Both the position numbers and the translations under genes were made by a program. A stretch of 46,375 bases of DNA from sequence record NC_001901.1. One strand, written 5' to 3'. This DNA comes from Escherichia phage N15. This document shows, piece by piece, positions 44,234 to 45,541 of this stretch. Within the stretch, counting starts at the first letter, position 1; each line of letters opens with the position of its first letter. Under the pieces are notes generated by a model. That model did no database searches, was not told the DNA's origin, and saw only the letters and a list, made by a program, of their open reading frames with translations.

Positions 44234-44565
44234 TGAAAGTTTATATCGCCGGGCCAATGACAGGCCGTGAAAATTATAACCGTGCCGCTTTCAATAAAGA
44301 GGCAGACCGCCTTACCCGCCACGGTCACACAGTTCTGAACCCAGCCAGCCTTCCTGATGGTCTGGAACAGCGCGAATACATGGATATCTGTTTTGCGATG
44401 CTCCGCTGCGCTGATGCAATCATGATGCTGCCAGGCTGGCAAGCGTCGTCCGGTGCGACAGCCGAATATCACTACGCGTACAAAATGGAATTGCCAGTCT
44501 ATACGGTTCTGCATTATCCACCTGTAGCGCTTGAGAAGGAAATTGATGAGCGCCTTTTACAATGA
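44233..44565 (+). CDS. Nucleoside 2-deoxyribosyltransferase-like protein (DUF4406 family)
   Basis: MKVYIAGPMTG...NYNRAAF...VLNPA...MLPGWQASSGATAEYHYA fits the DUF4406/NDT-fold pattern. Confidence 0.7.
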   Translation: MKVYIAGPMTGRENYNRAAFNKEADRLTRHGHTVLNPASLPDGLEQREYMDICFAMLRCADAIMMLPGWQASSGATAEYHYAYKMELPVYTVLHYPPVALEKEIDERLLQ

Positions 44566-45541
44566 ATTTGAAAGATATCCCGCAACATGGCTAAGCAACC
44601 TGATCGCGAACGGTTCAATAGCAAACGGCATTGTTGATGAGCGCTCTATTGTTGATGTTGCTCCGTCAGATGTTATCAATAAAACGCAATGCCACTGGTT
44701 TGCTGGGATTGGAGTTTGGAGTTATGCGTTGCGTTTAGCTGGCTGGCCAGATAGCCGTTCTGTATGGACAGCCAGCCTGCCATGCCAGCCGTGGAGCTCT
44801 GCAGGAAAGGGAGGAAAATTTGATGACGAACGACACCTCTGGCCTGTGTTTTTCAGACTCGTTAAAGAGTGCCGCCCTCCAGTCATTTTTGGTGAGCAGG
44901 TTTCAAGCAAGGACGGCCTTGAGTGGTTCTCAGCTGTACAAACTGACCTGGAAAATGCGGGCTATGCCGTTGCAGCGCTTGATACATGCGCAGCGAGCGT
45001 CGGTGCTCCGCACATCAGACAAAGAATCTTCTGGATGGCCTACGACTACAGCCAGCAATACCAAAACGGCGATAAAGGATGTAGTGAAAATACTGGCCAG
45101 AAGAGCAGCGGGACGACAGTCGAACTTGCAGGATGTAGCAGTTCTTGCCGGATGGAATACACCGACAGCATCAGACTGCAAAGGAGGGTATCAGGGAGGG
45201 AGGATACGAAACGGGAAATTATCGACCGACCGCCTGGATGTAACATCGCAGTTGGCGGGATGGTCACCCGAAACGCTCCCGTCACTGAATTCAAACCAGA
45301 AAATCACAGCGCCCTGGGGGCCGTGCAGACTGACTCATACTGGAGAGATATTGACTGGCTCTTCTGCCAGGATGGAAAGTGGAGGCCAGTTGAACCCTCA
45401 TCATTCCCGCTGGCTGATGGGATTGCCGGTCGAGTGGGCCAGTTGCGCGCCTACGGGAACGCGATAGTCGCTCCATTAGCGGCAGCATTCATCACCTCGG
45501 CTTATCAGGCAATCCAGGACTTCGAATCCCAAAAAAAATAA
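44546..45541 (+). CDS. DNA cytosine-C5 methyltransferase-like protein (frame integrity questionable, see findings)
   Basis: Motif [10 protein letters not shown], motif [13 protein letters not shown], motif VI VIFGEQV, motif VIII-like [11 protein letters not shown]-terminal [14 protein letters not shown] 215-codon overlapping ORF (44820..45467) also carries methyltransferase-like motifs. Confidence 0.7.

Follow-up and report, generated by a model that had tools for sequence, protein, structure and literature searches.

The window analysed here is the whole 46,375-nucleotide sequence of Escherichia phage N15 (NC_001901.1; one strand, 5' to 3'), and the subject is a cytosine methyltransferase gene at positions 44546-45541 of its plus strand that is open in two reading frames. 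With a probability of roughly 0.8, two nested genes encode here the chains of a heterodimeric C5 cytosine DNA methyltransferase, of which alpha would be read in one frame (frame A) and beta, encoded entirely within the alpha gene, in the +1 frame (frame B). A previous sequence-only reading had noticed methyltransferase-type motifs in both frames and offered four explanations, namely two compensating indels or sequencing errors that hide a true protein of the order A-B-A, a frameshifted pseudogene, recoding or dual coding, and an artefact of motif recognition. Of these, dual coding is retained, as both frames are constrained and open, and recoding is not, as a conserved slippery site was not found. 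The nested two-subunit pair is the sole model that needs every feature observed.

Both open frames of the sequence-only reading are present in the list of open reading frames (ORFs), as are all the peptides it quoted from them. The frame A ORF 44531..45541 encodes 336 residues from a TTG or, from the ATG at 44546, which stands 5 nucleotides behind an AAGGA, 331 residues plus the stop. The frame B ORF 44820..45467, with 215 residues from the TTG at 44820 or 214 residues from the ATG at 44823, lies fully inside the alpha gene; its stop-to-stop open stretch covers 44739-45464 (242 codons), between a stop at 44736-44738 and the beta stop TAG at 45465-45467, which falls inside the motif X zone of alpha. 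The third forward frame is closed at the locus (34 codons at that place).

The C5 methyltransferase motifs are distributed over the two frames. Motifs I (HWFAGIG, 44693-44713), IV (PCQPWS, 44780-44797), VI (GEQV, 44891-44902, with EQV as a variant of ENV), VIII (45005-45034, including RQRIF) and X (YGNAIV, 45452-45469, followed by a C-terminal helix) are all found in frame A, and the PCQ, EQV and RQR of alpha align to M.HhaI. The alpha reading lacks motif IX and the recognition region; both are found in frame B, where segments at 45033-45065 and 45144-45188 follow an N-terminal stretch of ~70 residues and a motif-IX-like segment extends over 45381-45437. In the profile check that had been proposed, alpha matched PF00145 with 58.3 bits (cut-off 22) over residues 74-182, that is profile positions 65-180 and motifs IV-VIII; alpha also matches phrog_363 over its full length and reaches 38 bits against NCBIfam dcm, below the cut-off of 100.65. 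No family of Pfam or NCBIfam was matched by beta, which does match phrog_31772 and phrog_1008, both labelled DNA methyltransferase.

How the two frames belong together is indicated by gp71 of the Mycobacterium phage WillSterrel, a single-frame C5 methyltransferase found among weak tblastn matches in phages. Its one chain carries, in this order, motifs I-VIII (PCQPFS, DERHIWP, APHQRDRLF), three LLPTPxxxDG modules, LNPAFPEWMMGWPTGW and IIGNGVVP, and the one-frame reading after the modules runs through ARLNPAFPEWMMGWPTGW and then SRNDQLRIIGNGVVPQQAAAAL. In gp71, the stretch between motifs VIII and X (residues 228-357) is where the profile of the beta family aligns (E = 2.3e-7, hhalign probability 93.5%), which refutes an artefact of motif recognition in one of the frames. 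An A-B-A chimera of the N15 frames is collinear with gp71 in two alignments (E = 1e-16 and 2e-9), the second of which covers the modules and motif IX taken from B and continues into motif X taken from A, whereas alpha alone aligns up to motif VIII only, plus a 21-residue match at motif X; the C-terminus of alpha (the zone 45446-45541) aligns to IIGNGVVPQQAAAAL of gp71. From the A-B-A order of gp71 it follows that beta residues ~72-211 correspond to the recognition region and motif IX, and alpha to motifs I-VIII and X. Nothing in monomeric enzymes corresponds to the ~70 N-terminal residues of beta, whose DNA also encodes alpha motifs VI-VIII. The A-B-A protein suggested by the sequence-only reading thus is, judged by gp71, the ancestral order and a matter of evolutionary history; as a description of present decoding it is probably wrong.

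The predicted structure of alpha follows the same division. In the AlphaFold2 (AF2) model, a confident Rossmann core (residues 1-170) and a confident helix (residues 309-330; predicted local distance difference test (pLDDT) ~90) flank the 135 residues 171-305, which have a pLDDT of 25-40 and no predicted fold. A Foldseek search with this model returned 1dct (M.HaeIII, E = 4e-7) on top, together with M.HhaI entries, over ~180-200 columns that cover the large domain only, and by this model the large domain of alpha has the C5 methyltransferase Rossmann fold. In the hhalign comparison of the chimera with M.HhaI, motif IX is matched by the B segment and motif X by YGNAIV, while the C-terminus of alpha alone is not aligned at the motif IX/X region of M.HhaI. 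Beta was not subjected to a fold search, as its model has a pLDDT of 45.

A search with the chimeric B+A profile for single-frame relatives among 5.8 billion proteins retrieved only three singleton fusions; in these metagenomic singletons (P0241, P0242 and P0330) beta is joined to the alpha tail at three different points. Scanned against Pfam, frame B and the A-B-A chimeras of three phages brought no gain over alpha alone, with PF00145 always matched at profile positions 65-180, and sequence searches of the PDB with beta, with the beta profile and with two candidate C-terminal module profiles returned nothing relevant.

The two-frame layout is not a peculiarity of N15. Relatives were collected from 86 viral loci, 80 loci in genomes of bacterial species and 5 further phage records, and in all of them the frame B relative lies at +1 of the frame A relative, with both frames open; compensating indels or sequencing errors do not account for this. 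Instead of homologues confined to a single frame and lacking an open frame B, which would have spoken for the opposite, the second open frame is conserved; the third frame is closed across the collected relatives, and the layout holds down to ~35% identity in loci from Gamma-, Beta- and Alphaproteobacteria and Desulfovibrio as hosts. Searches of phage genomes by tblastn with frame A and with frame B separately led to one and the same set of genes. For example, the methyltransferase annotation of two phages at ~50% identity, Salmonella phage SW3 and Edwardsiella phage eiAU, corresponds to frame A, and the +1 frame is also open with the same frame B motifs.

Rates at the three codon positions, determined for 149 pairs of relatives with 72-97% nucleotide identity, together with divergence at 4-fold sites of each frame, show that both frames are under purifying selection, zone by zone, which leaves no room for a frameshifted pseudogene. 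In 44546-44785, with the N-terminal region, motif I and the start of motif IV, only frame A is constrained (positions 1/2/3 of A ~0.10/0.08/0.38; A 4-fold sites 0.30-0.50). In 44786-45029, where most of motif IV, motif VI and motif VIII up to 45029 are overlapped by the N-terminal segment of beta, both frames are constrained: all positions are damped, A 4-fold divergence is 0.08-0.25, and the B amino-acid difference of 0.16-0.27 equals that in the zone where B alone is selected. This latter zone, 45030-~45300, contains the GWPTPxAxD recognition modules of beta over the alpha linker, and its rates at A positions 1/2/3 are ~0.42/0.22/0.17, with the wobble at B position 3; position 1 of A coincides with position 3 of B and has a rate of 0.39-0.46, B 4-fold divergence ranges over 0.39-0.57, and the A amino-acid difference is ~0.5 versus 0.11 in the alpha N-terminus.

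Further downstream, in ~45300-45445, both frames are again constrained (A positions 0.19/0.10/0.12), with B 4-fold divergence halved to 0.23-0.26, and a function of its own for the alpha reading in 45301-45445 is uncertain. The zone 45446-45541, with motif X YGNAIV, the C-terminal helix of alpha and the stop of beta inside, is constrained in frame A only (wobble at A position 3, 0.27-0.38; A 4-fold 0.29-0.34). The wobble thus leaves position 3 of A for position 3 of B at ~45026 and returns at ~45446. The junctions between the frames, at ~45030 and ~45430-45445, come close to the positions near 45035 and near 45455 that had been read from the N15 sequence.

A long stretch of alpha between motifs VIII and X therefore is a linker with unconstrained amino acids, and it is nevertheless free of stops. 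When synonymous frame B codons were shuffled in the B-only zone, with the B protein and its codon usage kept, the middle zone of N15 acquired a mean of 4.1 frame A stops, and the probability of no stop was P = 0.004; none is observed. The same holds for 68/68 unique viral loci, where shuffles gave 2.2-8.9 stops in nearly every locus and the median P(no stop) was 0.007, and for 73/73 loci of an independent genomic set (3.75 stops expected, median P 0.008). The earlier statement that double openness is unlikely by chance is thereby given numbers, and the lack of stops against the shuffle expectation implies that frame A is held open by selection and that alpha is read through.

The reciprocal test, with A-synonymous shuffles around the conserved beta motif LYKLTWK (the TWK serving as anchor), found frame B open from -44 to +24 codons of the anchor in 142/142 loci versus ~20% expected. 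In the next 55 codons upstream there was no excess of frame B openness (112/139 = 81% versus 69% expected). The excess thus starts ~45 codons before LYKLTWK, so the selected part of beta would begin at ~44820 in N15. A candidate Shine-Dalgarno-like GGAGG for beta is found at 44810..44814, within the codons for GKGG of alpha, with a spacing of 5 nucleotides to the TTG at 44820 and of 8 nucleotides to the ATG at 44823, and (A)GGAG(G) with TTG or ATG recurs at the aligned position -45/-44, both within the N15 clade and at many loci outside it. A general start of beta at an upstream ATG (-100/-96) was considered and rejected, as frame B openness there is not above chance and the synonymous sites of frame A are unconstrained there; this lack of selection again places the beginning of the selected part of beta near -45.

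At neither junction was a conserved slippery heptamer present in the junction alignments of 75 and 78 sequences, which bears out the remark that N15 has no classical one, and the conservation at the junctions is accounted for by residues of both proteins. A programmed frameshift would leave the zero frame dispensable after the shift and the new frame dispensable before it, and the loci show the reverse on both sides.

A mechanism that would unite these observations is as follows. Alpha would be translated end to end over 44546-45541, yielding the catalytic core with motifs I-VIII, a linker of roughly 100-135 residues, in which the recognition region is read out of frame and which would drift without acquiring stops, and the helix of motif X, which would complete the cofactor pocket. 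As alpha must be read through the displaced middle to reach motif X, stops are avoided there without constraint on amino acids. Beta would be made from the same messenger RNA (mRNA) by internal initiation at the TTG 44820 or the ATG 44823 behind the GGAGG, and translation from well upstream of the junction would explain why frame B is constrained and open over motifs VI-VIII. Beta would supply the GWPTPxAxD target-recognition modules and motif IX, and its ~70 N-terminal residues, which overlie alpha motifs VI-VIII in the other frame, probably attach it to alpha. As a heterodimer, alpha and beta would form the active enzyme, most likely an orphan, anti-restriction methylase acting on the DNA of phage and host; anti-restriction and epigenetic roles are familiar from phage orphan methylases in general. 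From the sequences of the locus and its relatives we thus infer separate initiation of beta, formation of the heterodimer, the need for both chains and the biological role.

Several observations weigh against this picture. The likeness to the heterodimeric enzyme M.EcoHK31I, discussed at the end, is one of described layout, and among the listed matches of frames A and B none bears that name. The start codon of beta is not common to the whole family, as many loci have ATGs at -100/-96 and none at the -45 that corresponds to the -45/-44 used by the N15 clade. The AF2 model of beta alone (pLDDT 45) is unusable, the alignment of the chimera to M.HhaI is weak (E = 0.015, probability 3%), and, whichever construct was used, the profile searches of Pfam and the PDB found neither motif IX nor motif X. 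Residues 266-305 of alpha (~45341-45460) are nearly invariant in the family and yet have an AF2 pLDDT of 29-41; whether they are conserved through the overlap with motif IX of beta or through a role of their own is uncertain. Finally one locus, L045, has a TGA in alpha (~2580), 10 codons before GYGNA, and is regarded as a damaged copy.

Among the alternatives, a single A-B-A chain produced by a +1 shift near 45030 and a -1 shift near 45440, instead of or besides alpha and beta, would reproduce exactly the order of the single-frame gp71, and the rare metagenomic singletons P0241, P0242 and P0330 do join B to A. Such double recoding is nevertheless unlikely: no slippery motif is kept at either junction, and the shifts would need neither an open frame A after the first of them, which is open for 100-190 codons in 141/141 tested loci, nor constraint and openness of frame B ~70 codons before it, which are both present, while the three different junctions of the singletons fit sporadic indels. 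To our knowledge there is no precedent for a gene with two efficient frameshifts in opposite directions, which is counted against it as well. A related arrangement would combine an A-to-B fusion with a separate small motif X product, the openness in the middle of frame A serving, for example, to avoid premature termination and Rho-dependent polarity. That mid frame A is unconstrained and without predicted fold, with stop avoidance as the sole visible constraint, would suit such an arrangement, but the last 32 codons are under frame A selection, so ribosomes must reach them in frame A; as the junction alignment contains no conserved start codon for a motif X mini-ORF and no slippery site for the fusion, and as the alpha of M.EcoHK31I is reported with motifs I-VIII and X, this arrangement is very unlikely.

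It might also be held that alpha is the sole real protein and frame B an unexpressed ancestral relic, open by composition or by chance, in line with the annotation of alpha alone by RefSeq and most phage records and with a beta unrecognised by Pfam and NCBIfam. This is highly improbable in view of the zone 45030-45300, where the wobble is that of frame B and the A amino-acid difference is ~0.5 versus 0.11 in the N-terminus, of the 35-60% identity of beta between bacterial classes and its 19,322 representatives at 50% identity, and of an alpha without a counterpart of the recognition region and motif IX. An error of sequencing or assembly, or an inactivated pseudogene in N15, is the default reading when two frames each carry part of one enzyme and no comparison is made; with the identical layout in >170 independent loci from isolates, prophages and metagenomes it becomes next to impossible, and truly damaged copies look different, with an indel that affects both frames in L137 and a frame A stop in L045. 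The nested pair of an alpha and a beta gene consequently remains the preferred explanation.

The family to which the pair belongs is very large. At 90% identity, the relatives of frame A form at least 8000 clusters; among the 120 clusters listed, all have PF00145 and those with a name are called "DNA cytosine methyltransferase". Relatives of beta, which keep 35-60% identity between bacterial classes, amount to 3019 clusters in a word-indexed search and, at 50% identity, to 19,322 cluster representatives with E <= 1e-3 or 7,365 with E <= 1e-30. The number of GWPTPxAxD-type modules per beta ranges from 2 in N15 up to ~6 (P0016, P0017, P0038, P0051, P0054 and P0116). Where beta has more modules, the alpha linker is longer and still free of stops, so every added module must be stop-free in the -1 frame. 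It is conceivable, although doubtful, that the nested layout is the rule, and not a one-off as in M.EcoHK31I, in a family that ranks among the largest of the cytosine methyltransferases of phages and prophages, and that this layout arose by a +1 displacement of the segment with the recognition region and motif IX, which left an alpha spacer of 100-190 codons selected only to be stop-free and a new beta N-terminus of ~70 residues overprinted on motifs VI-VIII.

Individual members of the family show rearrangements of their own. In a damaged copy from Klebsiella michiganensis (L137, 1752-1941), an indel displaces both frames together, and in P0061 a deletion joins the N-terminus of alpha, through motif VI, to beta. 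In phage eiAU (L002, 1138-2556), the beta frame meets no stop ahead of the following gene and continues in frame into the coding sequence of an N6-adenine methyltransferase (2011..2556), resulting in an ORF of 472 residues; as judged from this ORF, eiAU may possess a beta-Dam fusion protein.

The annotation of these loci reflects mostly one of the two frames. For all E. coli relatives listed, RefSeq gives a name to alpha alone, whereas in Xanthomonas phage FoX4 (L089, 1002-1914) beta alone is annotated, as 'hypothetical protein', and alpha is omitted. Very few records name both; Escherichia phage K1G (L088, 1002-1826) has both frames annotated, K1ind3 has overlapping features labelled 'putative C-specific methylase' and 'putative Mte8-like protein', and phage P AB-2017 has only the 'Mte8-like' label under the match. 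For the K1 coliphages, both ORFs were entered by the annotators, who also remarked on a similarity to N15.

A nested heterodimeric enzyme of this kind is already known in M.EcoHK31I (1995), which was reportedly described by Lee, Kam and Shaw in that year. The literature searched contained nothing relevant on the N15 gene and no description of a layout universal in the phage/prophage family, of a selection map or of a derivation from a single-frame enzyme, and there is a moderate chance that the family-wide picture itself is new. If it is indeed undescribed, it would be an unusually clean and deeply conserved example of the splitting of an enzyme by out-of-frame nesting. With its single-frame outgroup, the locus also illustrates how a monomer can pass into a two-subunit enzyme without gene duplication.

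With respect to practical consequences, if the heterodimer is real, the protein annotated as "DNA cytosine methyltransferase" is without its motif IX and recognition region, and cloning of alpha with altered codons, or reading of alpha alone, would lead to an inactive enzyme or the wrong specificity; if the family-wide picture is true, most database entries for the family describe an incomplete enzyme. For work on methylomes and on phage-host interactions, the specificity modules (2 to 6 GWPTPxAxD) would then reside in an unannotated protein. The locus can also serve as a strong positive control for the detection of overlapping genes and offers a rare long region selected only to be stop-free.

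The surroundings of the gene in N15 add to this description. Upstream lie lysis genes (lysozyme, then a DUF2514 Rz-like gene) and then a DUF4406 gene, related to nucleoside 2-deoxyribosyltransferases (44230-44565, E = 7.5e-35), the 3' end of which overlaps the start of alpha by 20 nucleotides; this overlap suggests translational coupling with the methyltransferase. Downstream, 19 nucleotides past the stop of alpha, a terminator-like hairpin on the plus strand (CGTGCGACC ACGG TCGCACG, then CTTTTCCATT; 45560..45589) has 8 pairs, 6 of them G-C, and is a consensus match only. A scan of the alpha gene found no sigma-70-like promoter inside it, and the lack of an internal promoter and the hairpin after the gene are consistent with a single mRNA. 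No endonuclease gene adjoining the locus was seen among its N15 neighbours, and alpha/beta would accordingly count as an orphan methylase.

A second nested pair in the +1 frame is located 600 bp upstream, where the DUF2514 (Rz-like) ORF 43430..43993 encloses the ORF 43677..43931. The product of the latter, 84 residues beginning MPKRKQLPRVMLLLVWLALLVSC..., is proline-rich, contains LVSC as a lipobox-like motif and has the appearance of an outer-membrane spanin of the Rz1 type, nested in a gene of the Rz type.

With regard to the rest of the window, 28717-34069 is 100% identical to the N15 repA record U63085, and matches to phiKO2, KpLi5 and Enterobacter phage MStein-2023a with 80-92% identity lie elsewhere (among the matches listed, 8 of 32 records). 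The comparison with phiKO2 that the sequence-only reading had recommended was uninformative, as the phiKO2 match ends at ~39,700, ~4.8 kb before the gene, and phiKO2 is not among the DNA matches to the methyltransferase gene region.

Among known systems, gp71 has catalytic motifs (DERHxWP, PCQPFS and APHxRxR) that are homologous to those of N15, and homologous recognition modules (LLPTPxxxDG in gp71, GWPTPxAxD in N15), motif IX (LNPxFxEWMMGxPxGW) and motif X (GNxVVP) in the same order. Monomeric enzymes such as gp71 and the structural references M.HhaI and M.HaeIII consist of one chain read in one frame, whereas in N15 the middle third is displaced by +1 as a separate chain, the old frame is kept as a stop-free linker and beta has an added N-terminal segment.

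In terms of gene layout, the Rz/Rz1 spanin genes of phage lambda are likewise a nested gene pair in the +1 frame (PMC5295617), on the same strand and with products that act in a complex, as the N15 chains probably do. The spanins are proteins unrelated to the methyltransferase, with an unrelated function, and their enclosing gene is functional throughout, whereas about one third of N15 alpha is an unconstrained spacer.

As a two-polypeptide C5 methyltransferase, M.AquI (CYCGRG) has a large chain with motifs I-VIII and a small chain with motifs IX and X (PMC3404938). It resembles N15 in the split into two chains within the variable region, and differs in being a simple cut, whereas in N15 motif X is back in the large chain, under frame A selection, and the small gene is nested in the other frame.

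The layout most similar to that of N15 is found in M.EcoHK31I of E. coli, a natural heterodimeric C5 methyltransferase that recognizes YGGCCR, of which, according to the accounts cited, beta is encoded wholly within alpha in another frame, alpha carries motifs I-VIII together with X, while beta carries motif IX (PMC2836561, PMC3404938). Nesting on the same strand in another frame and the division of motifs between the chains are thus the same in both systems. As far as these accounts describe it, M.EcoHK31I is the methylase of a restriction-modification pair, whereas the N15 gene stands amid lysis genes, the DUF4406 gene and a terminator with no endonuclease seen; the literature also places the recognition domain of M.EcoHK31I in alpha by position, while in N15 the modules are in beta and alpha is unconstrained between motifs VIII and X. 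The same accounts report that the chains of M.EcoHK31I expressed from separate plasmids restore methylation activity and that the N-terminus of its beta governs the association with alpha (PMC2836561, PMC3404938), a requirement which parallels the constrained, overprinted N-terminus of the N15 beta.

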